From a virus (lineage: Duplodnaviria > Heunggongvirae > Uroviricota > Caudoviricetes): a DNA stretch of 31,386 nt. The position numbers were made by a program, and so were the translations under genes. The stretch lies in the IMG/VR virus record IMGVR_UViG_2713896900_000011; one strand, 5' to 3'. The notes under the pieces were generated by a model, which did not search any database, was not told where the DNA came from, and was given only the letters and a program-made list of their open reading frames with translations. Shown one piece after another: positions 1,958 through 30,405 of this stretch (positions are counted from its first letter, which is position 1; each line of letters begins with the position of its first letter).

Positions 1958-4405
1958 TTAACCGTCATGCATCATGCTGGCACGGGCGCGCGCACGTTTA
2001 TCCCGCTCGTATTTTTCGAGCGCATCCTGTAACTGGCGGTCAAGCTGTGTCCCCGGCGCAGTACCACCCGTAAGGCTGATGTGATATTCGTTTTTACTCT
2101 GGTCCACATAAGAGCGACCAGCCGGTGCCGTGACCGGCTGATAAGCCTGATAGCCTGCATAAGAGCTGGTCGCCGGAATATAACCACTGCTGCCATACGT
2201 GGCGGCTTGAGTTCTGGCGGCGGTCTGGTCAAGTGTGTCTGACTCTTTGTTGATAACACCGAGTTTTTCCAGTACCCAGTCAATACCACTGCGCAGTTTG
2301 TTGAACGCATTAAGCGGCAGCATCAGCGCGTCAGCCAGTGCCTGCCCGAACATGACACCCGTGTCACGGCAACGGTTCAGGGTGTCCTGGGTGGCTTTAA
2401 CCGGGGCAGTCAGGTTTTTAAACCACTGCCACGCGGCCTGTAACTTTTCGCCCAGCCAGTCAAACACCGGCTTCAGTGGCGTGAACAGCTCCCCCACCGG
2501 CGCAAATGCCGCTTTCAGCCCTTCAACCACACCGCCAAAGAATGCGCTGACAGGCTCCCAGTATTTACGGATAAGCAACGCTCCGGCGACAATGGCGGCC
2601 ACCACGGCCACAACCGGCCAGCTAATCGCCCCGATGGCCGTCATAACGGCACTGCCAACCGTCGTGAAGATTGCCCCCATTGCGCCTGCTGCCGCTATGA
2701 TGGCATTGATGCCGGTGATAACCGGCCAGGCTACAAGACCAATGGCACCGATGATGCCAGTAAGCGCCAGTGCGCCACCGGCAATGATGCCGATGGTTGA
2801 CGCCAGTGATTTGTTTTTCTGTATCCAGCCGTCGAGTTTTAACACATACTTTGTGGCCGTCTGCGTGAGCTTACGCAGCGCGCCTTCCTGCTGGTCAAAC
2901 AGGTCAGTCCCCACCGCCTCATAAGCGGACTGAAACTCCTTAAAGTCACCGCCGAGGTTGTCCTGCATGATATTTACCAGCTCGGCGGTCTTCCCGTCTG
3001 AGGCTTTAAACGCAGCGGTCAGTTTGTCCAGCTTTGCGGTTGAGGCGGCAGTCATCAGCACGGCGGCGGCTGAGCTGGCCTCCTCCCCGAAAATGGTTTT
3101 CATGTATTCAGCCTGCTGGGCAGTACCGAGCCGGTTTTTCTCAAAACTGGCCTGCATTTCTTTCAGAATGGTAAATACTGGTCGGGTATTCCCCTTACTG
3201 TCTGAGGTTTTCACGCCAAGCTCTTTGAGTGCATCCCATGCTTTTCCCGTCGGTGCCTGCAGGCGACTTAACACGGCACGGCTTCCCGTCCCCGCCATTG
3301 AGCCTGTGATTTTTGCATCATGCAGCGCCCCGACCATTGCGGCGGTTTCTTCAATGCTGACACCGGCATTTTTTGCCACTGGTGCGGCATAGGTCAGCGC
3401 ATCGCTCATGCCGTCAAAATCGGCGGCGGTTTTGTTCATCGTCATGGAGAGAACATCCCCGATATGAGCGACCTTATCGTTTGAAAGCTGAAAGGCAGAT
3501 TTCATCCCCATCAGCAGAGCGGCGTTTTCTTCCATCGTGCGGCGGTTCGCCAGCGCCATATTCAGTGTGACCGGCGTTGCCGCCTGAATGGCATCAACAT
3601 CCCCACCGGCTTTCGCAATAATAATCTGCGCGCCGGCCGCATCATCCGCTGAGGCGGCGGTGTTGTCACCGAGCTGGCGCGCCTGCTTGCGTAGTGCAGC
3701 CATTTCGGCGGAGTCTTTTGCCACACCGAGCACAGCCTGCAATTCTGAGTTTTTCTGCGCAAACTCATAACCGGGCATCAGCAACTTAACTCCGGCCATC
3801 GTTCCCGCCGCCGCAATCCCCACACCGGCAGCGCCCACCGAGGCCATATTTCCGGCCAGCTCCTTTCCGGCCTGATAACGCTGTTTTACTGCGTTAAGTT
3901 TTGCCTGTTGTGCACTGACACGCGCCAGCGCGTCACGCTGACGGTTAAGCTGTGCGGTGGTTTCACTGATACGGTTTTTCAGTCCCTGCTCATCATGTGC
4001 AAGATTGCGGGTATTAATTCCCACAGCGGCCAGTTCCCGCTGCTGGCGTTTAACGGAATCCGTCAGGCGGTTATATTTCGCCTGTAAGTCCTCCGCCGCT
4101 CGCTTTGCTGATTCCAGCACTTTCGCCTGAGCACGTGTCGGACGTTCGGTGTTTTTAAACTGTGTGGCAAGGGCTTCGGCCTCCTGCCGTGCCTTTTCAA
4201 GTGCATGACCAGTCACGGCGAGCTGTGCACTGGTCTTGCGAAATCCCTCAATACGGGATGCCTGACCGTTCAGCTCGCGCAGTGATTTTTGTGTTTCCCG
4301 GATATCCCCCGACAGCGATTTGCTCGCTGTACGGATGGATTTAAACGGGCGGGATGCCTGGTCAACAGCCCTGAGCAATACCTGTAATTTTACATTGTTA
4401 CTCAT
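1958..4405 (-). CDS. T: Tail tape measure protein T (815 aa)
   Basis: An 815-aa protein with long coiled-coil-like Ala/Gln/Arg-rich stretches and a central hydrophobic Gly/Ala-rich segment, placed right after E/E'. This is the expected tape measure position and size for P2. Confidence 0.9.
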   Translation of the reverse strand: MSNNVKLQVLLRAVDQASRPFKSIRTASKSLSGDIRETQKSLRELNGQASRIEGFRKTSAQLAVTGHALEKARQEAEALATQFKNTERPTRAQAKVLESAKRAAEDLQAKYNRLTDSVKRQQRELAAVGINTRNLAHDEQGLKNRISETTAQLNRQRDALARVSAQQAKLNAVKQRYQAGKELAGNMASVGAAGVGIAAAGTMAGVKLLMPGYEFAQKNSELQAVLGVAKDSAEMAALRKQARQLGDNTAASADDAAGAQIIIAKAGGDVDAIQAATPVTLNMALANRRTMEENAALLMGMKSAFQLSNDKVAHIGDVLSMTMNKTAADFDGMSDALTYAAPVAKNAGVSIEETAAMVGALHDAKITGSMAGTGSRAVLSRLQAPTGKAWDALKELGVKTSDSKGNTRPVFTILKEMQASFEKNRLGTAQQAEYMKTIFGEEASSAAAVLMTAASTAKLDKLTAAFKASDGKTAELVNIMQDNLGGDFKEFQSAYEAVGTDLFDQQEGALRKLTQTATKYVLKLDGWIQKNKSLASTIGIIAGGALALTGIIGAIGLVAWPVITGINAIIAAAGAMGAIFTTVGSAVMTAIGAISWPVVAVVAAIVAGALLIRKYWEPVSAFFGGVVEGLKAAFAPVGELFTPLKPVFDWLGEKLQAAWQWFKNLTAPVKATQDTLNRCRDTGVMFGQALADALMLPLNAFNKLRSGIDWVLEKLGVINKESDTLDQTAARTQAATYGSSGYIPATSSYAGYQAYQPVTAPAGRSYVDQSKNEYHISLTGGTAPGTQLDRQLQDALEKYERDKRARARASMMHDG

Positions 4406-4825
4406 TCGTGTTTCCGCTTCGCCGGAGCGCCTTTTCGCGCCATGTGATGAGTTCGGTCAGGCTCATGGGATACAGTTCTGATGGCGGCCAGTGAAATATC
4501 ACTGCCACATCCGCCATCAGGTCATCGACCGAGAGATTTTTCGGGAACGTCACTGCACCGAGTTCGGCGACAAAAAACCGACCACCTTACCGGCCAGCGC
4601 CACAAGGTCAGGCAGTTCCAGCGCGGCGACTTCCTGCTCGGTCAGCATCGGTGCCGTCATGCGCGGCAGCACTTTAATCAGTGCATCGACTTCGGAGTTT
4701 GCAACCGCAGCCAGACTGACACCGCGCAGCGTCCCGGCACTGGGTTTCATCAGCGTGACCTGTTCGATAACCTGCTCACCACGTTTGACCGGATTGTCCA
4801 GGGTAATGACATTTTCTTTGTTCAT
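4398..4825 (-). CDS. E': Tail assembly chaperone E+E' (about 141 aa), made by a programmed -1 ribosomal frameshift
   Basis: The slippery heptamer T-TTT-TTG sits at 4571-4577 (minus strand, codons G-F-L of E). Hand translation of the -1 frame from there reads VAELGAVTFPKNLSVDDLMADVAVIFHWPPSELYPMSLTELITWREKALRRSGNTNE and ends at a TAA at 4398-4400, overlapping the T start. The length agrees with P2 E+E' (142 aa). Confidence 0.75.
4550..4825 (-). CDS. E: Tail assembly chaperone E (91 aa, in-frame product)
   Basis: A 91-aa ORF ending ...VGFLSPNSVQ, in the P2 gpE position between FII and T. Confidence 0.85.
   Translation of the reverse strand: MNKENVITLDNPVKRGEQVIEQVTLMKPSAGTLRGVSLAAVANSEVDALIKVLPRMTAPMLTEQEVAALELPDLVALAGKVVGFLSPNSVQ
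4571..4577 (-). other. -1 frameshift slippery site (TTTTTTG)
   Basis: Read directly: the minus strand gives GGT TTT TTG near the 3' end of E. Confidence 0.75.
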
Positions 4826-6902: not shown

Positions 6903-8009
6903 ATGGATGTCAATGAACTTAGAGAGTTACTTATCAAGTATAATGGCCTTCAAAATACTGATGAAGTCTATACGTTTTATTATGATGAAACGAATAACAT
7001 TCGAAAACTATATTTAAAAGATTCTGGCTTTAATGTTGTAAAGGCGGATAACTTCATCCTTGCAGGAATACTACACAAAGGGTTAAGCACTGACAGCGAT
7101 TATTCAACCCTGTTTCAAAAGCTTAATCTTCAAAAAAGTGTCAATGAGTTAAAACTCAGATATATCGCTAAGGGTAGTTTTTTGGATATGCTTAAATCTG
7201 ATAAGCTTTTAATTATTCTAAACTGGCTTATCGAAAACAATTTCTACATCCATTATTTTAATCTTAATATCACATACTGGTCTATTATTGACATTGTTGA
7301 TTCTATTATTGGAGAGCTACACAATCCTTTTTATATCATGAACCACATGTCACTTAAGAGCGATTTTTATGAGCTTGCCAATAGCAATCCCGATGTTTTC
7401 CTGAATGCTCTACATAAATTTAACTACCCCGATATTCCAGAAGAAAAAATTTATGAGTTTTGCCTCTGGCTTATCGATTTTACATGCATGCACAGTTGTA
7501 TGCTGCCAGATTTTCGAGCACACGCACTCGAAAATTTGGTTAAAGAATCTCTAAAAATCGAAGAACTACCGTTCATATCGGGATTTCATGGTCGAAAACT
7601 GATCGATAGCTTTATGGTATTTTATTTAAGAAACTTGTATCTATTTAAAAATTCCGTTCACATATTTGATGAAGAAAAAAGCATTCAAGATGAAGTTAAA
7701 AACTTCCCGTTAACTGAAAATGGCATACCAATACAGAATCATGAATTCGTTAAATCCCACAACTCAGAGGCTATCCAACTATCTGATGTTATCGCAGGCT
7801 TTTTGGGTAAGTATTTTTCTTACTTAAAAGATGTAAATGACGAGCAATTAGCGATTGATAAGTCAGCCTTAACGAGCAAGCAATTTAAGACCCTTTCTGC
7901 GTTAAAACACATTATTGATGTTTCTGATGATGTTAGCAGAGGATTTTTTAATGAAGTTAGCAGCGAGGGAGAGCGACGGAGAAATAATCGTTTTTTACAT
8001 GGCGTATAA
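6903..8009 (+). CDS. AT-rich cargo protein (368 aa) at the Z/fun-equivalent locus; DUF3800-like motifs; candidate anti-phage/abortive-infection protein
   Basis: A visibly low-GC gene on the opposite strand to the flanking late genes, with a strong SD. The N-terminal motif YTFYYDETNN and the C-terminal motif AIQLSDVIAGFL resemble the conserved DESG and QxADxxAG motifs I associate with DUF3800. The family assignment is from memory, not a search. Confidence 0.6.
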   Translation: MDVNELRELLIKYNGLQNTDEVYTFYYDETNNIRKLYLKDSGFNVVKADNFILAGILHKGLSTDSDYSTLFQKLNLQKSVNELKLRYIAKGSFLDMLKSDKLLIILNWLIENNFYIHYFNLNITYWSIIDIVDSIIGELHNPFYIMNHMSLKSDFYELANSNPDVFLNALHKFNYPDIPEEKIYEFCLWLIDFTCMHSCMLPDFRAHALENLVKESLKIEELPFISGFHGRKLIDSFMVFYLRNLYLFKNSVHIFDEEKSIQDEVKNFPLTENGIPIQNHEFVKSHNSEAIQLSDVIAGFLGKYFSYLKDVNDEQLAIDKSALTSKQFKTLSALKHIIDVSDDVSRGFFNEVSSEGERRRNNRFLHGV

Positions 8010-22219: not shown

Positions 22220-22867
22220 TTATTCCTTCGGTTCATGATAGAAGTTTATGGGATAATGAATCACTTCATAATCTAAATTTGATACAGAATGTTTATGAGT
22301 ACTATAAAATACTAGTGGATTCTTATCACACTGCTGAATATTTATTTCTCTAGACGCATGAATTTTGGGCGCATTTTTAGTCAAGTAGGCAATATACTGT
22401 TGCATTACAGCAGAGCAAAGCTTATTTTTTGTATAGATAATTACACCACCCGATGCACTATCAACAGTCCCTGTACTATATCGCTCAGTAAGTTGCGAAT
22501 ATCCCTTAAAAAGGTACGAATATCCTGATGAGTGTTTCTTGGCTTCGCCATGCCATGTAAAATCTGCTAATTGAATTGTAATATCGCAATGACCGCGCTG
22601 ATTAACTTCATGATAAGCTCTTATCCCTAAGAATTCGTTATCTATTATTCCCAGAAGATGAAGTGTCAATTGGTCTTCGGTAAGTTCAAAGCCCATTTTG
22701 TTTGCATTTTGCTCAATTTTTCTTACTGCATAATCAAGTAACTCACGAACAAAAGCCTTAAAGTTATTATAAGATTCCATAGCATATGTCACCGCTGTAA
22801 GAATCTTATTAGCATTATCTATTACGTTATTTTTACGAATATCTGCCAGACTGAAACGTTGGACCAT
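22220..22867 (-). CDS. Cargo operon gene 3 (215 aa): hypothetical protein with a possible PD-(D/E)xK-like nuclease motif
   Basis: AT-rich. Its ATG lies 1 nt after the gene 2 stop and is preceded by a GGGGAG Shine-Dalgarno. The segment GHCDITIQLADFTWHGEAKK has the D-x13-E-x-K spacing of a PD-(D/E)xK core; this is an inference only. Confidence 0.6.
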   Translation of the reverse strand: MVQRFSLADIRKNNVIDNANKILTAVTYAMESYNNFKAFVRELLDYAVRKIEQNANKMGFELTEDQLTLHLLGIIDNEFLGIRAYHEVNQRGHCDITIQLADFTWHGEAKKHSSGYSYLFKGYSQLTERYSTGTVDSASGGVIIYTKNKLCSAVMQQYIAYLTKNAPKIHASREINIQQCDKNPLVFYSTHKHSVSNLDYEVIHYPINFYHEPKE

Positions 22868-22868
22868 G

Positions 22869-23288
22869 TCAACTCCCCACTTTCTTTAAAGAAAAGAAGG
22901 GGAAAATGAAATCCTCATAATCAGTTAAAATATCACCTGTTACAGGATGTTCAAATATATGATTTTTTTCCGCATCCATAACCTCACCAACGGTTACCGG
23001 ATAAAAATCGTCATTTTCATCAACAAAAAAATACTCCAATCTTAAAAGACTTACTTTAGGATTACATAAAACCTGAATGGCGATATAAATTTTATCGTTA
23101 TTTATTTCATCCGTAAAAGAAAGATTACCACCATTCTCTTTGATATACAGATTAACAAGATCTGGATAGCTCATTAAACAGTTTTTTTTACATTGCGGGG
23201 AGAGCTTCATCAATGCATTATAGAGAGCGCATGCGATTTCACCGACATTCGCATCAGTAACGCATATTTCTTTAATAATGTCTGCCAT
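22869..23288 (-). CDS. Cargo operon gene 2 (139 aa): hypothetical protein
   Basis: AT-rich. I take the start as the ATG at 23286-23288 (MADIIKEI...), preceded by a strong GGGAGG Shine-Dalgarno. The track's start 5 codons upstream overlaps that SD. Confidence 0.6.
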   Translation of the reverse strand: MADIIKEICVTDANVGEIACALYNALMKLSPQCKKNCLMSYPDLVNLYIKENGGNLSFTDEINNDKIYIAIQVLCNPKVSLLRLEYFFVDENDDFYPVTVGEVMDAEKNHIFEHPVTGDILTDYEDFIFPFFSLKKVGS

Positions 23289-23316
23289 TGATTTCCTCCC
23301 CATACCTACTACCTTC

Positions 23317-24480
23317 TTAAACGATTAAACTCATTAAACGTTCAAAATCGTCCCGTCCCAGACAATTATTAATAATAGCATAGTTTACTGACGTGGAGCT
23401 AGAACCTCCGAGGTAACGGCGAAGAGAGCCGGGAATGATCAACTCAAGATCATCATCTAGTGATAGAAGCACATTCACTCTTGAAATTTTTATACCAATC
23501 TTGTAAAGACCTATCTGCCCTACTGCTTTAATTCCTTCTTGGTTAAAGATATCATCACGCAAATCTTTTTTTGCTTCTTTTTTCTTTTCCTGATGCGTAG
23601 TTCCCTCTGGAGTATAGAAAGATAATTCAAAAACTTGATAATCGCTTGCATTAAAAGGATAGGTGTTTTGAGCAAAAATTTGTTCAATTAGAGGGAAAAA
23701 GTCTTTTTCTGTCGAAACAAAATCAGCCCCCATATAATCGTATAATTTTCTAACAATTACGGTTTTAGAAAATGTAATTGTCTCTCCAATAACATTTTTG
23801 GGAGCATCAATAAGTATATTGATAGTGTTATCTTGTATATTTAAAATACAAACATCAAAACATTGTCTTCTAACTTTCTTTTTGGCTATGATTTCATCGT
23901 AGCTTTGATATTGTGGGATTGTTTGCGGTGAGACCTTTTCTTTTATTACTTGCTCCCTGACTGATGAAAAAAGGGCTATCACTTGATTGCTGTCAGTAGA
24001 GCAAAAGATTAGTTGAGGGCTATTTTTAGGTGTGGATAATAACTGTTGCTCATTAAGAATGTAACTTGATACATTTTGTAAAATAGTAGTGTTTGCCCAT
24101 TCTGTCTGAATGGCTAAGCTTAGCCCTGTCATGGTTGGAGCATCAATTGCCAAAGAAAAAATAGCCTTATCGCCATAGAAAAACTGACTAAAAAGAAGGT
24201 CATTAATTTTCTTTAACAATGAGTCAAATTTAACTCTGTCCGTGTCTCTAATTTCAATCAACTGCTCTTTAACTTTATTAAAAGTCGCATCCTTACCGCG
24301 ACCAAGAGAAAAACCTAATGACGACAAAACAGATTTTACTATAGACCAACTTATTCTATTAAATAGACAATTCAGACTTTTTAGTTCAATGTCAGACAGT
24401 GACGATTGTACTGTATTATTTGCTGCTAATACAGCCTGAGGGACAGATGAATTTACTGTTGTAGGGACAATGCCTGTCAT
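23317..24480 (-). CDS. Cargo operon gene 1 (387 aa): hypothetical protein
   Basis: AT-rich. The track ORF begins at a TTG at 24525; the first ATG (24478-24480, MTGIVPTT...) has a GGAG Shine-Dalgarno about 6 nt upstream. I recognise no domain. Confidence 0.6.
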   Translation of the reverse strand: MTGIVPTTVNSSVPQAVLAANNTVQSSLSDIELKSLNCLFNRISWSIVKSVLSSLGFSLGRGKDATFNKVKEQLIEIRDTDRVKFDSLLKKINDLLFSQFFYGDKAIFSLAIDAPTMTGLSLAIQTEWANTTILQNVSSYILNEQQLLSTPKNSPQLIFCSTDSNQVIALFSSVREQVIKEKVSPQTIPQYQSYDEIIAKKKVRRQCFDVCILNIQDNTINILIDAPKNVIGETITFSKTVIVRKLYDYMGADFVSTEKDFFPLIEQIFAQNTYPFNASDYQVFELSFYTPEGTTHQEKKKEAKKDLRDDIFNQEGIKAVGQIGLYKIGIKISRVNVLLSLDDDLELIIPGSLRRYLGGSSSTSVNYAIINNCLGRDDFERLMSLIV

Positions 24481-24598
24481 TGCAAACTCCAGTTCCGCTA
24501 ACAAAACCTCTAAGAATATTGGCAAGCAAGTATCTTCAAATATCAGGGAAAGTCAATCCAATAGCTCTCTTTTTGCGATGGGAAACTGTTAGCGCGCA

Positions 24599-24944: not shown

Positions 24945-25163
24945 CTATCGTCTGCGTGGTGGTGGCGTAACTCTTGATTGACCGATATGATTAAACCGCC
25001 CGTAATTATCCCGGACTATTTCGGCACACCCGACTAGCTCATCGGGCGTCAGATTTTCGTTGACCATAATCCGCTGTAAACGCTGAACAATAGCCATCAG
25101 CTTGATATTTTTAGTTTTATGGTGTGGTATCTCACCTGGTATTCTGTGCATTATCCAAGCCAC
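24945..25163 (-). CDS. Hypothetical small protein (72 aa)
   Basis: An ORF between the ASCH-like gene and cos, with nothing recognisable; the call rests on coding context only. Confidence 0.3.
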   Translation of the reverse strand: MAWIMHRIPGEIPHHKTKNIKLMAIVQRLQRIMVNENLTPDELVGCAEIVRDNYGRFNHIGQSRVTPPPRRR

Positions 25164-25606
25164 CCGTTTTGCTGTGCACGCTCCATCTGTTCATCTGAAT
25201 AGTTCCATGCTCCATCCGTGGCAACCATTGCCCCGCCAGACATCCCCGTCTCTGGTTCATACATAACAGCAAGGCCGAGCTGATGCATAATTTCATGATT
25301 AATTCTGAATACCAGGCCACGCTCACTAAGTTCTTTCCAGTTCACAATCTTATATGCGCCCGTATTAAGCAGCTCAATACTTAGCAAGACATAATCTTCC
25401 AGCCAGTCTGACAGGTCAGTAACATCTGTTATCCGGGCTTCAACCTTTCGCCCCGTAAACACACCCTGCACCCATTCATGCAAAATCAACGTGTCCCCGC
25501 ACTCATAATTACGGTCATTTTTCCGAAACTCTGCGCGTTTCTTTCCTTCCAGCACAAGGTCAAAATATTTTGCGTGCAGCTTTACCTCGTGAATTTTGGC
25601 CATCAT
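25151..25606 (-). CDS. Hypothetical protein (151 aa) with an ASCH/PUA-like N-terminal region and an HExxH motif
   Basis: The ATG at 25604-25606 lies 2 nt after the A stop, with a GGAG Shine-Dalgarno. The N-terminal half (KIHEVKLHAKYFDLVLEGKKRAEFRKNDRNYECGDTLILHEW) looks ASCH-like to me; the C-terminal half contains INHEIMHQLG (HExxH). Confidence 0.5.
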   Translation of the reverse strand: MMAKIHEVKLHAKYFDLVLEGKKRAEFRKNDRNYECGDTLILHEWVQGVFTGRKVEARITDVTDLSDWLEDYVLLSIELLNTGAYKIVNWKELSERGLVFRINHEIMHQLGLAVMYEPETGMSGGAMVATDGAWNYSDEQMERAQQNGWLG

Positions 25607-25608
25607 TT

Positions 25609-27888
25609 TCACTCCATTACTGTTGAGAATCCCGGCCACTCATCAGCGACCGGATACGTGAATTTTTTCCCGTCATAATTTACGGTCGCGCCACGCGCCA
25701 GCGCCTCAAGCTCCCATCGCTGCGGCCTGATACCGTTCTGAGCAAGGTCAACGCGGATACGGGTAATTTGCATTCTTTCCGACCGGGTCAGTCTGGCCGA
25801 TGGTGCAATTTCATGTGGTTTTAACGGGCTTCCGTTTCTTTGCTGACGACTTGGCGTTCTCCGACCGTGTTTTAATGCACCTCTGAGCGCCCTCACGACC
25901 TCCGGGTCACTCCATTCGATAACACCGTCATCAACCAGATTAAGCACTGCTGCGGCGTGCTCAGAAGGTGTGGGAGCCGGTAACGAAGTATCACCACCGG
26001 TGAGTTTTCCACAGTTATTGACAGGACTCCGAGGCGCGGCGATGCCGCTTTTTAACGTCAAAGGCTCAACGACCGGCACTTTCGGAACAATGCGCCAGTC
26101 CGTCGTTCTGGTGATATGAATATGACGCGCGCCGAGATGCGGCGCGTAAATGCCGACCACTCTCTCGACTTCTTCCTCGTACTCGTTAACTTCATCCGAC
26201 GGGCTACGGGCGACTCTGACAGTCTGGCAATCACGCGGAACATTTGCCCCACCCTGCGCGCTGATATACAACGCAAAATCACCACTGTCTGCGGCGGCAC
26301 GTGCAGCCTCAACGCGTTCGTCAAACTCATCAGCAATGCTGACGCCGCGAGGCAATTTGCGTAGTTCACGGTAAGCCCCCATTGTCGGCAGACCAACCGT
26401 TTTAAATTGCGGAATGCGCCACGTTGACGCCCATGCGGTAACAGCAGCAGCTGTGTCTTTCAGCGGCCTGCCGGTATCGTTATCGAGCTGCCCATCCAGT
26501 GCATAGCCGTCGATGTTTTTTGAAATGTATTTCGCGATATATCCCGCTGCACCGCCCCGGTTAAGGTGTTTTGCCTGAAAACGGTTTCGCGCGGCTCCTC
26601 TTTCGTCGCCATCCTCTTTGAGCGCATAGCGACGCATGATTTCGATAATCTGGTTACGCTGGCGTGGATTACAAAAAAGCATCATATGCCAGTGCGGTGT
26701 TCCATCGTGGTGTGGCTCGACGACTCGCAAACCGTAGACCTGTAAATCATTATCCTTGAATGCCGTGCGCATCAGGCTCCAGATACGGCAGAGATAACGC
26801 TGCGCATCCTTTGGATTAAATGCCTCATCGTTCCAGCCGTGATTTAGCTGGACGGTTTTACTTTCGCCTTTTCCGACCTGACGTGTCGGGTGATACTTTG
26901 ACGGCGTGGTCAGCGTGATAAACATCCCCACATCGCCCTCTGCGGCGGCGTAACGCTCAATACCGGCAATGGTGTTCATCAGCTCCATCCGGCGAATTTC
27001 TGGATTAGAAATACTGCCCATCACCTTACTGATAAGGTCGATGCGCTCGCCGGTTTCCCTGTTTTCAAGGTCACACGATTTAAGAAATTCCAGATTTGCC
27101 TGGCGGCGTGCACGCACATCACGAATGGCATGTTTACTGGCATAAGGAGAACGGTCTTTATTGACCTCCCCGACAGCAATCAGTAACGCCTCATGCCAGC
27201 GCATACGCTGGCCTTTAAGCTGACTAATCCACCACTCATCGTTAAACAGACGGGCAATGGCAGAATATGCCTGCCTCGTGGTCATCTGTCCTTTACGGTA
27301 TTTTTTCCAGTAGAGAGGGGAAATATTGAAAGCACGTGCAGCGCCAGCAACATGACCATAGAGGTGAGCCTGCGCCTCATCCGTAAACAGCGATTCTTTT
27401 TCGCCATGCGCATCCACCCAGGCATCGCAGAGTTCCTCATACATCATGAAAAGCTGCGATGAAATACGGGCGGCAAACTTTTTCAGCTCCTTATCATTCA
27501 TCCCCGGCAGACGCGCATAATGGTCACGCTCTACCAGAAACAGCAACGACGCGTCGGTATTCATTTCATGGCGCTGATTCACGCGCTCAATGCGCGGCCA
27601 TAAACGACGCTGAAAAGTGGATGTGAGGAAATAAAACCCGTGCACCGGGCTTTTATTGCGCCGGATGTAGTCATAGCGTGAAGTAAACAGCGAACGCAAA
27701 AAGTAAGGCAGGCGGTTAATCGTGGATAAAACACCTTGCACCTGACGCATCTCGTCACGTGTAAGGGGTCTTTCGCGCCCGACGGCCTCGCGTGGCGCGT
27801 TCCATGCATAAGCACCGGTAAACGTCTTACCGGTGCCTGCGGCAAATGCTGACGGAGGGACAAAATGCCCGGAGGCTTTAACGGCCAT
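25609..27888 (-). CDS. A: Replication initiation protein A (rolling-circle initiator, about 759 aa)
   Basis: The start MAVKASGHFVPPSAFAAGTGK... matches my recollection of the P2 gpA N-terminus (P2 gpA is 761 aa). The track's ORF starts 14 codons upstream at 27930. Confidence 0.85.
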   Translation of the reverse strand: MAVKASGHFVPPSAFAAGTGKTFTGAYAWNAPREAVGRERPLTRDEMRQVQGVLSTINRLPYFLRSLFTSRYDYIRRNKSPVHGFYFLTSTFQRRLWPRIERVNQRHEMNTDASLLFLVERDHYARLPGMNDKELKKFAARISSQLFMMYEELCDAWVDAHGEKESLFTDEAQAHLYGHVAGAARAFNISPLYWKKYRKGQMTTRQAYSAIARLFNDEWWISQLKGQRMRWHEALLIAVGEVNKDRSPYASKHAIRDVRARRQANLEFLKSCDLENRETGERIDLISKVMGSISNPEIRRMELMNTIAGIERYAAAEGDVGMFITLTTPSKYHPTRQVGKGESKTVQLNHGWNDEAFNPKDAQRYLCRIWSLMRTAFKDNDLQVYGLRVVEPHHDGTPHWHMMLFCNPRQRNQIIEIMRRYALKEDGDERGAARNRFQAKHLNRGGAAGYIAKYISKNIDGYALDGQLDNDTGRPLKDTAAAVTAWASTWRIPQFKTVGLPTMGAYRELRKLPRGVSIADEFDERVEAARAAADSGDFALYISAQGGANVPRDCQTVRVARSPSDEVNEYEEEVERVVGIYAPHLGARHIHITRTTDWRIVPKVPVVEPLTLKSGIAAPRSPVNNCGKLTGGDTSLPAPTPSEHAAAVLNLVDDGVIEWSDPEVVRALRGALKHGRRTPSRQQRNGSPLKPHEIAPSARLTRSERMQITRIRVDLAQNGIRPQRWELEALARGATVNYDGKKFTYPVADEWPGFSTVME

Positions 27889-28153
27889 GTGAGCCAAAAG
27901 CCTCTGAACAACGCTTGCTGAGTTGCTCAACCTGCGCGTTTAAATCAGCAAAAGATTTTGCGCTTCCGGTCAGAATATCGTGATGCATCATGCCGGAAAC
28001 GAGCTGGCTTAATTTCGGGTAATAACCAACCACCGCCAGCCATTCCTGACCGGCGTTTTTACCGCTTTCCGCTCTCTTTTTCTCGTGGAGAATAAACTGA
28101 AAGCTGTCACTGGTAACGACATAACGTTCGCCAACTTCGATACGAATACTCAT
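27878..28153 (-). CDS. Hypothetical early-operon protein (91 aa)
   Basis: A small ORF directly upstream of A on the same strand, in the position of the P2 orf80-83 cluster. Confidence 0.5.
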   Translation of the reverse strand: MSIRIEVGERYVVTSDSFQFILHEKKRAESGKNAGQEWLAVVGYYPKLSQLVSGMMHHDILTGSAKSFADLNAQVEQLSKRCSEAFGSHGR

Positions 28154-28374
28154 GCCATTCTCCGGTAATGCTTGTTTTTTGCTTCAAAGACTGACTGGCA
28201 GGAAACACAACGCGTGGCTGACGGATAAGCCGCACGACGGGCAGCAGGTATTGGCGCATCACACTCTTCGCAAACCAGCGCAGAAGCACAGCAATGTTTT
28301 ACCCTTGCCGCGTTAATCTGGCGCTCCAGTAATTCAGCCTGTTGTTCCTGAATGAAATCTACGTTGTCCGGCAT
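28150..28374 (-). CDS. DksA/TraR-like C4 zinc-finger protein (74 aa)
   Basis: It has a C-x2-C ... C-x2-C arrangement (CEECDAPIPAARRAAYPSATRCVSCQ) typical of the TraR/DksA zinc-finger family, and sits in the early operon between B and A. Confidence 0.6.
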   Translation of the reverse strand: MPDNVDFIQEQQAELLERQINAARVKHCCASALVCEECDAPIPAARRAAYPSATRCVSCQSVFEAKNKHYRRMA

Positions 28375-28679
28375 TACCAGTTCCTTTTGTCGTTCAGTTT
28401 CTTAAATTCATCAGCGCAATAGCTGGCGATTTCTGTCGTTAATTTTGTCAGTTCATCCACGGAGGAAATTTGCTTGTGAAATACAGCGCGTTTAACAAGT
28501 AAATTGACCACATCAGACAGGAGGTTTAATTCATTCTGATAAATCGCGATAACAGATTCAGTTATGTCGCGTTTTTCTTTATCAAGACAAAGTTGAATAA
28601 GAGACAAATCGCCATTTTTCATAACGGCGATTTTTAAGGCGTTATTCAGTAATACAACTGAATGAGAACAGGACATCAA
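28374..28679 (-). CDS. Hypothetical early-operon protein (101 aa)
   Basis: A contiguous small ORF in the B-A interval with a start/stop overlap to its neighbour; it looks somewhat AT-rich. Confidence 0.45.
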
Positions 28680-28900
28680 AGCACCTCCCCGCGAGACAAT
28701 CCGATATTGTGAAATTTTTCCGACTCCTGACTGAGCAGCTCGACTATCTCCACGCGGGATAACTCCGCCTTTGTGATATGGCGAATCATGGCGTCAAGAT
28801 GAGAAGAAAAGCGCGTCGCAGCATCGGCCTGTGCTTCGGTTCTGGCCTGTTGCAGCAGTAATGCGTATTTACCGCACTGATTTTCAGAAACTGTATGCAT
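28676..28900 (-). CDS. Hypothetical early-operon protein (74 aa)
   Basis: A contiguous small ORF downstream of B on the same strand. Confidence 0.45.
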
Positions 28901-28963
28901 GACTTTCTCCAGGCAAAAAGAAGCCCCGCACGATTAAGTGCGTTAAAAACTCTGGTTAATTAC

Positions 28964-29464
28964 TTAATGCAGATATTGCTCTGGTTTTACCGATGTCAGA
29001 ATTGTCGGTGCATACTCAAACAGGCTGAATAATTCACGTAATGCACGGAATAAAGCATCACGCCAGTAACATGATTCTTCATTAATTCGCCAGTACGGCT
29101 GGTTGAATTCTTTTTCTGTCAGTCGAGCGTGCATAAATAAAGTACGACGCTGGCTGACTGTTAAAAAACTAATATATGCATACTCACTTGCACCAACCTG
29201 ACGGCGTTTTGAGAATGCGCCACGCAATTCATCAATTGCACAAACCAGTCGTTCACGTTCGACGTCGTTCATTTCTTCAAAACGCATCGTTGCGTGACGC
29301 TGTTTTAACTGTGCATGAAAGCAAACCGTTAGCCGTTCGCGCTCCATCATCTGATTATAATAATCACATGTATCCTGCCAGCGAGGGACGGCAAGATGCT
29401 TGCCAATTATCCGGCGCATAGCTGCTGGCTGTTTTTCAACGAGATTGAGCGTCATCACTGTCAT
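28964..29464 (-). CDS. B: Replication protein B (166 aa)
   Basis: Size and synteny match P2 gpB (166 aa), between cox and A. Confidence 0.85.
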   Translation of the reverse strand: MTVMTLNLVEKQPAAMRRIIGKHLAVPRWQDTCDYYNQMMERERLTVCFHAQLKQRHATMRFEEMNDVERERLVCAIDELRGAFSKRRQVGASEYAYISFLTVSQRRTLFMHARLTEKEFNQPYWRINEESCYWRDALFRALRELFSLFEYAPTILTSVKPEQYLH

Positions 29465-29658
29465 TTCCAGACCCTCCGGCTTTTCAGAAAGGTCAGAGCC
29501 TTTTTTAACGGACTCTGTTTTTTGGTGCGGATAATGATTCCCTTGCGTCCCTTCCCGTGGGTGATGGTGAAGTCAATCGCCCTTGGGCTTTCGTTACGCA
29601 ATAACTGAGCAATACAACGCGGCTCATTCATAATCACAACCCCATCCACAAAAGCCAT
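29461..29658 (-). CDS. Hypothetical small protein (65 aa) between cox and B
   Basis: A small basic ORF with start/stop overlaps to both neighbours, in the position of P2 orf78. Confidence 0.45.
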   Translation of the reverse strand: MAFVDGVVIMNEPRCIAQLLRNESPRAIDFTITHGKGRKGIIIRTKKQSPLKKALTFLKSRRVWK

Positions 29659-29921
29659 GCATCACGCTGTTCAACCGGTCGGTTATAAAACGCCTCACGT
29701 ACAGCGCGATTAAACTCAGGAATGAAAACCCATTTTTCACCGGCACGAGCCTTCGGTTTGCAAGGATCACGCAATTCAATAATTGGTAATTTATTTGCCT
29801 TCACCATTTCACTGACGGCTGTCTTTGGCTTCCCTAATAAATCAGCAAATTTATCCACATGAACCGCATCAAGCGGATACTGAATCACATAATTTTCAGC
29901 GTCCATATATGGTACCCTCAT
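29634..29921 (-). CDS. cox: Cox (excisionase / repressor of the lysogenic promoter), about 90-95 aa
   Basis: The C-terminal half (...GEKWVFIPEFN...RDAWLLWMGL) resembles P2 Cox (...GEYWVYLPAWN...RDGWLMWLGL) as I remember it. It is the first gene of the early operon, divergent from C. The start may be the internal MDAENY. Confidence 0.8.
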   Translation of the reverse strand: MRVPYMDAENYVIQYPLDAVHVDKFADLLGKPKTAVSEMVKANKLPIIELRDPCKPKARAGEKWVFIPEFNRAVREAFYNRPVEQRDAWLLWMGL

Positions 29922-30042
29922 AGGATCCAGCCCTTTCTAAACCACTCAAAACCGTTTAGACGCTGGTTTATTCTCAAATCAATGGAACCTATATAGGTTC
30001 CAGTTTTGAGGGAATTTAGTCCCTATATAGGCACCATGTCAA
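29922..30042. promoter_or_regulatory. Immunity switch region (divergent Pe/Pc) with two CCTATATAGG palindromes
   Basis: An 18-bp perfect palindrome GGAACCTATATAGGTTCC at 29984-30001 and a second CCTATATAGG at 30022-30031, 34 bp apart, in the 121-bp gap between divergent cox and C. Confidence 0.6.
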
Positions 30043-30336
30043 ATGAAATTAAGCGAAAAGATTAAGGCCTTGCGTGAGGCTGAAGGGCTAAGCCAATCAA
30101 AATTCTGTGAAATCATAGAGTTACCGCTAAGCACACTTAAAAAATATGAAGGAGGAAACTTTGAACCCGGTGGCACAGCTTTGCTAAAAATCACTATGCA
30201 TCCCACATTCCAAAAATATGCTCTATGGCTTATGACAGATAAAACCGCGCCGGACGCAGGACAAATCGCACCGGCTCTCGCGCACATTGGGCCAGAGTCA
30301 ACAGAGTCCAACCACTCCGCGAAAAGGATTGGCTAA
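30043..30336 (+). CDS. C: Immunity repressor C (97 aa)
   Basis: The size and the C-terminal motif (...FQKYALWLMTDKTAPDAGQIAPALAHIGPE...) match P2 C repressor (...FTKYTLWFMTNQIAPESGQIAPALAHFGQ...) as I remember it. It is divergent from cox and upstream of int. Confidence 0.85.
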   Translation: MKLSEKIKALREAEGLSQSKFCEIIELPLSTLKKYEGGNFEPGGTALLKITMHPTFQKYALWLMTDKTAPDAGQIAPALAHIGPESTESNHSAKRIG

Positions 30337-30405
30337 CTCTATATAAAGATTACATTTTCACCATTTGCTACCAAGATGGTGAATACAGCGCCGGAGGGCT
30401 TTCTT

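Follow-up and report, generated by a model that had tools for sequence, protein, structure and literature searches.

What are the four small open reading frames (ORFs) that separate the replication gene B from the replication gene A in a P2-like prophage, and what might they do in the host cell? We addressed this question in IMG/VR virus record IMGVR_UViG_2713896900_000011, a virus assigned to the Caudoviricetes (Duplodnaviria; Heunggongvirae; Uroviricota). The window, that is, the whole stretch of DNA that was analyzed, is 31,386 nucleotides (nt) long, and all coordinates refer to it. The ORF list places four contiguous small ORFs on the minus strand at 27878-28900, between B and A. Our analysis indicates that this interval, within the early operon of a P2-type prophage, is very probably the orf80-orf83 accessory block, with Orf82 as a TraR-type protein and with translation that is probably coupled to that of A. 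Read from B toward A, the block consists of the following ORFs (lengths in amino acids, aa).

28676-28900, minus strand: orf80, 74 aa
28374-28676, minus strand: orf81, 100 aa from the ATG at 28676 (an alternative TTG at 28679 would give 101 aa)
28150-28374, minus strand: orf82, 74 aa
27878-28153, minus strand: orf83, 91 aa

The original prediction, made from the letters and the ORF translations, had described four contiguous, overlapping ORFs of 74 to 101 aa in the B-A interval. The ORF list and the junctions bear out this arrangement, since stops and starts overlap at orf80/orf81 (TGATG), orf81/orf82 (TAATG), and orf82/orf83 (ATGA). The lengths stand as well, except that the 101-aa ORF most likely encodes 100 aa, starting at the ATG at 28676 that is annotated in P2 and lies one codon after the TTG.

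Genes orf80 to orf83 were annotated in P2 in the 1990s. The 1.2-kb segment of the window is 97.3% identical at the DNA level to bacteriophage P2 (AF063097 / NC_001895) and 98% identical to Wphi and other Peduovirus genomes, and the P2 record lists orf83, orf82, orf81, and orf80 at exactly matching positions between A and B. Strand, order, and overlaps are the same in both phages and the genes are homologous one to one, so the correspondence with P2 orf80-83 that had been proposed is exact. Only a few substitutions separate the two blocks, with identical residues at 73/74 positions in Orf80, 94/100 in Orf81, 72/74 in Orf82 (the changes being G29C and T73M), and 87/91 in Orf83. Of 5426 complete E. 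coli genomes, 1672 contain the segment. Exact copies of the Orf80, Orf81, and Orf82 sequences each occur on ∼1000 or more contigs in public databases, and the exact Orf83 sequence occurs on 3; the four exact proteins carry the database names TraR/DksA, DUF5405 (twice), and DUF2732. The block is an already known, annotated gene set that has been partly characterized.

All four ORFs are genuine coding genes under purifying selection, as evidenced by their Shine-Dalgarno boxes, low ratios of nonsynonymous to synonymous substitution rates (dN/dS), and conserved gene order. A GGAG, GGAGG, or AGGA box is found at normal spacing before each start, with GGAG 7 nt upstream of the ATG of orf80 and GGAGG 7 nt upstream of the ATG of orf81. 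In a comparison with a Salmonella prophage (locus L004) at 62-80% amino acid identity and a dS of 1.0-1.9, at which synonymous change is saturated or near-saturated, we obtained dN/dS values of 0.13 for orf80, 0.16 for orf81 (for which values spanned 0.12-0.16 in all), 0.08 for orf82, and 0.20 for orf83. The gene order B, DUF2732, DUF5405, TraR, DUF5405, A is shared by ∼20 loci of Escherichia, Salmonella, Enterobacter, Kosakonia, Scandinavium, Pseudescherichia, and others. A scan of genome contigs for DUF2732 returned 13 close loci only, too few and too similar for a co-occurrence test, and none of the four proteins matched the PADLOC defense-system models.

One could still argue that not all of the small ORFs are real and that the interval is mainly a spacer or leader that controls expression of A. 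The database record of phage 186 lends something to this idea, since it labels all of its block genes "unknown function; not essential" and remarks that translation of A appears to need translation to the end of the preceding ORF. However, the idea is already contradicted by the substitution pattern (dN/dS of 0.08-0.2), and the conserved lengths, the four Pfam matches, and the confident AlphaFold2 (AF2) models speak against it too, which leaves it barely credible.

Orf82, a TraR-type zinc-finger protein

One of the ORFs had been predicted to carry a Cys4 arrangement of the TraR/DksA type. The product of 28150-28374 indeed contains C36-x2-C39-x17-C57-x2-C60, and these residues align with the zinc-finger cysteines of the TraR chains solved with E. 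coli RNA polymerase (5w1s and 6n57), to which Orf82 is similar with an E value of 4e-9 (phmmer). The hidden Markov model search proposed along with the prediction came out in its favor: Orf82 scored 43.5 bits against PF01258 (cut-off, 24.9) and 74.5 bits against TIGR02419, the TraR family (cut-off, 59.7), and it matched phrog_54. Its scores against the DksA equivalog models were under their cut-offs, as expected for a protein of TraR size; with 74 aa, Orf82 is a short form without the long coiled coil of DksA. F-plasmid TraR and lambda Orf73 have in common with Orf82 a length of ∼73 aa, the CxxC-x17-CxxC spacing, D3 and D6, and a conserved C-terminal helix ending in KHY. In the N terminus of Orf82 (MPDNVDFI), D3 and D6 of the DxxDxA motif are kept and the position of the alanine is taken by I8, as in P2 Orf82, while the full motif is found in the diverged homologues of an Enterobacter locus (L006) and of phage 186. 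Judged from its sequence, Orf82 is a member of the TraR subfamily of the DksA/TraR C4 zinc-finger family.

P2 Orf82 was purified by Gopalkrishnan and co-workers (mBio 2022, PMC9239242), who tested five TraR homologues, P2 Orf82 included, that are 32-49% identical to TraR. P2 Orf82 bound E. coli RNA polymerase at the site that DksA uses and, in the absence of guanosine tetraphosphate (ppGpp), inhibited promoters of rRNA and ribosomal-protein genes and activated promoters of amino acid biosynthesis genes (PMC9239242). The half-maximal inhibitory concentration for rrnB P1 without ppGpp was 250 nM, versus ∼50 nM for TraR, and in competition with DksA for RNA polymerase P2 Orf82 was about equal to TraR; thrABC and argI were activated ∼2- to 4-fold by all tested homologues except lambda Orf73 (PMC9239242). 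When induced, P2 Orf82 complements a dksA deletion (PMC9239242), and overexpression of Orf82 causes growth arrest (Liu, Saha and Haggard-Ljungquist, 1993, as cited in PMC9239242). For its part, lambda Orf73 slows host growth and raises phage yield (PMC9239242).

The prediction had noted that proteins of the TraR/DksA type bind the RNA polymerase secondary channel in other systems, and P2 Orf82, identical to this protein at 72 of 74 residues, does compete with DksA for RNA polymerase and inhibit rrnB P1 (PMC9239242); for the protein family, such binding has moved beyond conjecture. Binding of the RNA polymerase secondary channel by Orf82 of the window is supported through this near-identity. 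The interval had also been called poorly characterized, which is fair for orf80, orf81, and orf83 but not for Orf82 (PMC9239242). During lytic growth, Orf82 would shift host transcription away from ribosome synthesis, as Orf73 of lambda does in raising phage yield.

Orf80, Orf81, and Orf83

Orf81 and Orf83 both match PF17399 (DUF5405), with 114.9 and 49.8 bits, respectively, for a cut-off of 21.6. Pairwise BLASTP of Orf81 against Orf83 detected no similarity; alignment of the orf83 family with the orf81 family by hhalign covered 85 columns end to end with a probability of 80% and an E value of 1.4e-5. From these profiles, Orf81 and Orf83 are old, divergent paralogues, between whose genes the TraR gene now lies; a Buttiauxella prophage without a TraR gene (L023) has the two DUF5405 genes side by side. 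On the whole, the interpretation offered by the original prediction is supported, but it had missed this paralogy as well as the earlier characterization of Orf82.

The AF2 model of Orf83, built with 31 homologues, has a mean predicted local distance difference test score (pLDDT) of 79.7 and consists of a four-stranded sheet followed by two helices. A Foldseek search with this model yielded nothing significant in the PDB, the best E value being 0.38 with template-modeling (TM) scores of 0.34 or less, and sequence searches of solved structures, with single proteins or profiles, found no significant relative of Orf81 or Orf83. A fold like that of PC4, which binds single-stranded DNA, was considered for Orf83 and dropped, as the T5 match ranked fourth and was not significant (E value, 0.8; TM score, 0.25). 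Among predicted viral structures (BFVD), Foldseek retrieved many proteins of the size and fold of Orf83, with TM scores of 0.5-0.68, from podo-, myo-, and siphoviruses of enterobacteria, Bacillus, Cellulophaga, and Lactobacillus. By sequence (tblastn), DUF5405 relatives were found in Shigella phage Sf6 (gene 24, which adjoins abc2, erf, and ssb), in N4-like phages, and in large Bacillus phages. Many unrelated phages carry the DUF5405 fold in their early regions or in regions for DNA metabolism. Few proteins belong to the Orf81 branch: a set of 1.84 billion representative proteins contained only 20 relatives.

Orf80 matches PF10809 (DUF2732) with 39.9 bits (cut-off, 25), and its homologue in phage 186 does so with 75.9 bits. 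Its AF2 model (pLDDT, 83.5) is a helical hairpin with helices at residues 3-45 and 49-69. No relative of Orf80 was found in the PDB by sequence or by fold (best Foldseek E value, 3.5), and tblastn of a phage collection placed its relatives only in P2-type phages.

The composition of the block varies among related phages. In phage 186 (L002), the stretch between dhr and A comprises the terminator tR1 and then genes for a DUF2732 protein, a TraR-type protein, a DnaQ-like exonuclease, a DUF5405 protein, and a PAPS-reductase, the last of which precedes A. The exonuclease occupies the orf81 slot, so that the TraR gene directly follows that of DUF2732, and the PAPS-reductase gene separates the DUF5405 gene from A, whereas orf83 of the window overlaps A. 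A PAPS-reductase-domain gene (product of ∼335 aa) lies between the orf83-type gene and A in 186 (2405-3409), in Yersinia phage P37 (L003, 1592-2599), and in loci L015 and L016. The comparison of 186, P37, and the P2 relatives points to DUF2732 and the orf83-type DUF5405 as constant members of the block and to the orf81 slot and the orf83-A junction as sites that accept other genes. An Escherichia albertii locus (L013) has an insertion of ∼260 bp between the DUF2732 and orf81 genes (4213-4471 of that locus), and a Salmonella prophage (L004/L005, 4329-4607) has a 92-aa ORF on the opposite strand between orf83 and A that breaks the orf83-A overlap.

Could Orf81 and Orf83, perhaps together with Orf80, assist A and B as accessory factors of replication? 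The families of Orf81 and Orf83 (phrog_154 and phrog_265) are labeled "replication initiation protein," the genes sit between B and A with orf83 overlapping A, the Sf6 homologue has abc2, erf, and ssb as neighbors, and the orf81 slot of the 186 lineage holds a DnaQ-like exonuclease. However, a literature search found no experimental paper behind the PHROG label, and neither a nucleic-acid-binding or enzymatic domain nor a significant fold match was detected in these proteins. Furthermore, the 186 record considers the DUF2732 and DUF5405 homologues not essential, and the DUF5405 family is also present in phages with quite different replication systems. We therefore consider a replication role unlikely.

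A second possibility is that Orf80, Orf81, and/or Orf83 partner or modulate the TraR-type protein, strengthening or gating its action on RNA polymerase, in the manner described for Vibrio phage VP882 in a July 2026 preprint (bioRxiv 10.64898/2026.07.27.740977). In VP882, the gene immediately upstream of traR encodes QisA, which binds TraR and greatly enhances growth arrest; the QisA-TraR complex, which arrests growth strongly, is inactivated by QtiQ, a third protein of the phage (bioRxiv 10.64898/2026.07.27.740977). What the two systems share is a TraR-type phage protein that is encoded beside small genes of unknown function and expressed upon induction. At our locus, orf82 is joined to orf81 on one side and to orf83 on the other through overlapping stop and start codons, the gene directly upstream of the TraR gene in 186 is that of DUF2732, and in-frame orf81-orf82 fusions exist in databases (P0187, with 74 member sequences on 10 contigs). 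The fusions are weak evidence because one additional A within a homopolymer run accounts for them, and they may be an error or a tolerated accident. Homology of QisA to Orf80, Orf81, or Orf83 was rejected (hhalign probability of 1.4% or less); QisA is a 199-aa protein without a Pfam match, and quorum-sensing control is not evident at the orf80-83 block. Against an obligate partnership stand the DUF5405 genes of Sf6 and N4-like phages, for which no TraR-type gene is annotated within 3 kb, and the Buttiauxella prophage, which retains DUF2732 and both DUF5405 genes in the absence of a TraR gene. On this balance, a partner role for the three proteins looks quite improbable.

Within the reading of the interval as an accessory block, our guess is that Orf80, Orf81, and Orf83 would be early accessory proteins that the phage can do without and whose target lies in the host or in DNA metabolism.

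The early operon and the rest of the prophage

The block is embedded in an operon with the following neighbors and putative regulatory sites.

28964-29464, minus strand: gene B (replication), the upstream neighbor, 164/166 residues identical to P2 gpB; phrog_235
25609-27888, minus strand: gene A (rolling-circle replication initiator), the downstream end of the operon; PF05840, 3e-123
30013-30042, minus strand: promoter-like site at the position of the early promoter Pe, TTGACA-18-TAAATT, 10/12 matches
28915-28942, minus strand: putative weak intrinsic terminator between B and orf80, from a terminator scan
27872-27904, minus strand: predicted RNA hairpin at the start of A, fold z-score of -2.7 to -2.8

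Gene A is a cis-acting replication gene, and its product is identical to P2 gpA at 741 positions of a 775-column alignment. The promoter-like site has the same placement relative to C and cox as Pe has in the P2 record. Pe would drive the transcription of cox-orf78-B-orf80-83-A, past a weak hairpin terminator, with A as the last gene. This short GC hairpin (CGCAC-TTAATC-GTGCG followed by the T tract GGGCTTCTTTTT) lies in the 63-nt gap between the end of B (28964) and orf80, at the place where the P2 record gives a putative rho-independent terminator. It is conserved in the P2 group, and its position is that of tR1 in phage 186, the stem sequence of which differs. At most, the hairpin would be a weak terminator that lowers the transcription of orf80-83 and A relative to that of cox and B.

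Down the chain from orf80 to A, the overlaps measure 1, 1, 4, and 11 nt, the last being that between the end of orf83 and the ATG of A (27888). Through these overlaps, translation is probably coupled all the way to A, in a chain that would hand ribosomes from orf80 onward, and this fits the remark in the 186 record on the translation of A. In the hairpin predicted at 27872-27904, the GAGG box of A is paired, its AUG sits in the loop, and the 3' arm includes the orf83 stop codon. Tentatively, we propose from this folding model that a ribosome finishing orf83 would open the hairpin, which in phages of the P2 group would sequester the ribosome-binding site of A.

A search for known RNA families within 27400-30400 found none, and a scan for terminator-like elements of 27500-30400 returned 12 sites, compared to 3.6 ± 1.9 in shuffled sequences. 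Inside orf81, at 28606-28633 on the minus strand, lies a hairpin with an 11-bp stem, a 6-nt loop, and a T-rich tail (-13.8 kcal/mol). P2 shares this hairpin, L006 carries a different one in the corresponding codons, and five further loci lack one; the orf81 hairpin is probably lineage-specific or due to chance, and we discarded it as a conserved element.

The phage that surrounds the block differs from P2 in its cox and in its cargo genes. Cox (29634-29921, minus strand) shares only 35 residues with P2 Cox over an alignment of 99 columns; B and orf78, in contrast, are almost the same as their P2 counterparts. The low identity of Cox designates a P2-type phage with a different cox, in which the lysis-lysogeny switch region departs from that of P2. 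The gene next to A on its downstream side, at 25151-25639 (minus strand), occupies the orf91 position of P2 and encodes a 162-aa protein with DUF3850/ASCH and DUF7415 domains. Three consecutive ORFs of 402, 144, and 215 aa follow downstream of A at 22220-24525 (minus strand), in the tin/old slot of P2; these had no Pfam or PADLOC match and are a candidate for an uncharacterized cargo or defense cluster in this known variable region of P2. On the plus strand, at 6903-8009, a 368-aa DUF3800 protein matches the PADLOC candidate defense model PDC-S51 at 1e-106; its gene adjoins a tail-fiber assembly gene, at the position of the variable Z/fun slot of P2.

What the block may mean for P2-type phages

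Several points weigh against the block as we read it. P2 Orf82 is about five-fold less potent than TraR in vitro (PMC9239242), and Orf82 of the window likewise lacks the alanine of the DxxDxA motif, the absence of which the authors of that study hold partly responsible for the lower potency. For Orf80, Orf81, and Orf83, no function could be assigned: they have no relative of solved structure by sequence or by fold, and a literature search on the function of DUF5405, DUF2732, Orf80, Orf81, and Orf83 found nothing. The hairpin between B and orf80 is short (5 bp) and not unusually stable (fold z-score of -0.9). Finally, the hairpin at the start of A is limited to the P2 group and is absent from the diverged L006 locus, from 186, and from P37; its absence from L006 implies that the proposed coupling mechanism may hold for the P2 group only.

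As a discovery, the block carries little weight, as its genes are annotated and widespread and the activity of the zinc-finger protein is published. Its modest interest lies in the three small proteins without a function that about one-third of E. coli genomes encode and in the DUF5405 fold, which spans many unrelated phages. With little confidence, we suggest that DUF5405 may be a widespread fold of phage early proteins that acts on a conserved host target or that, together with DUF2732, tunes the hold of the TraR-type protein on RNA polymerase. If true, P2-type phages would have a counterpart of the control that QisA and QtiQ exert in VP882.

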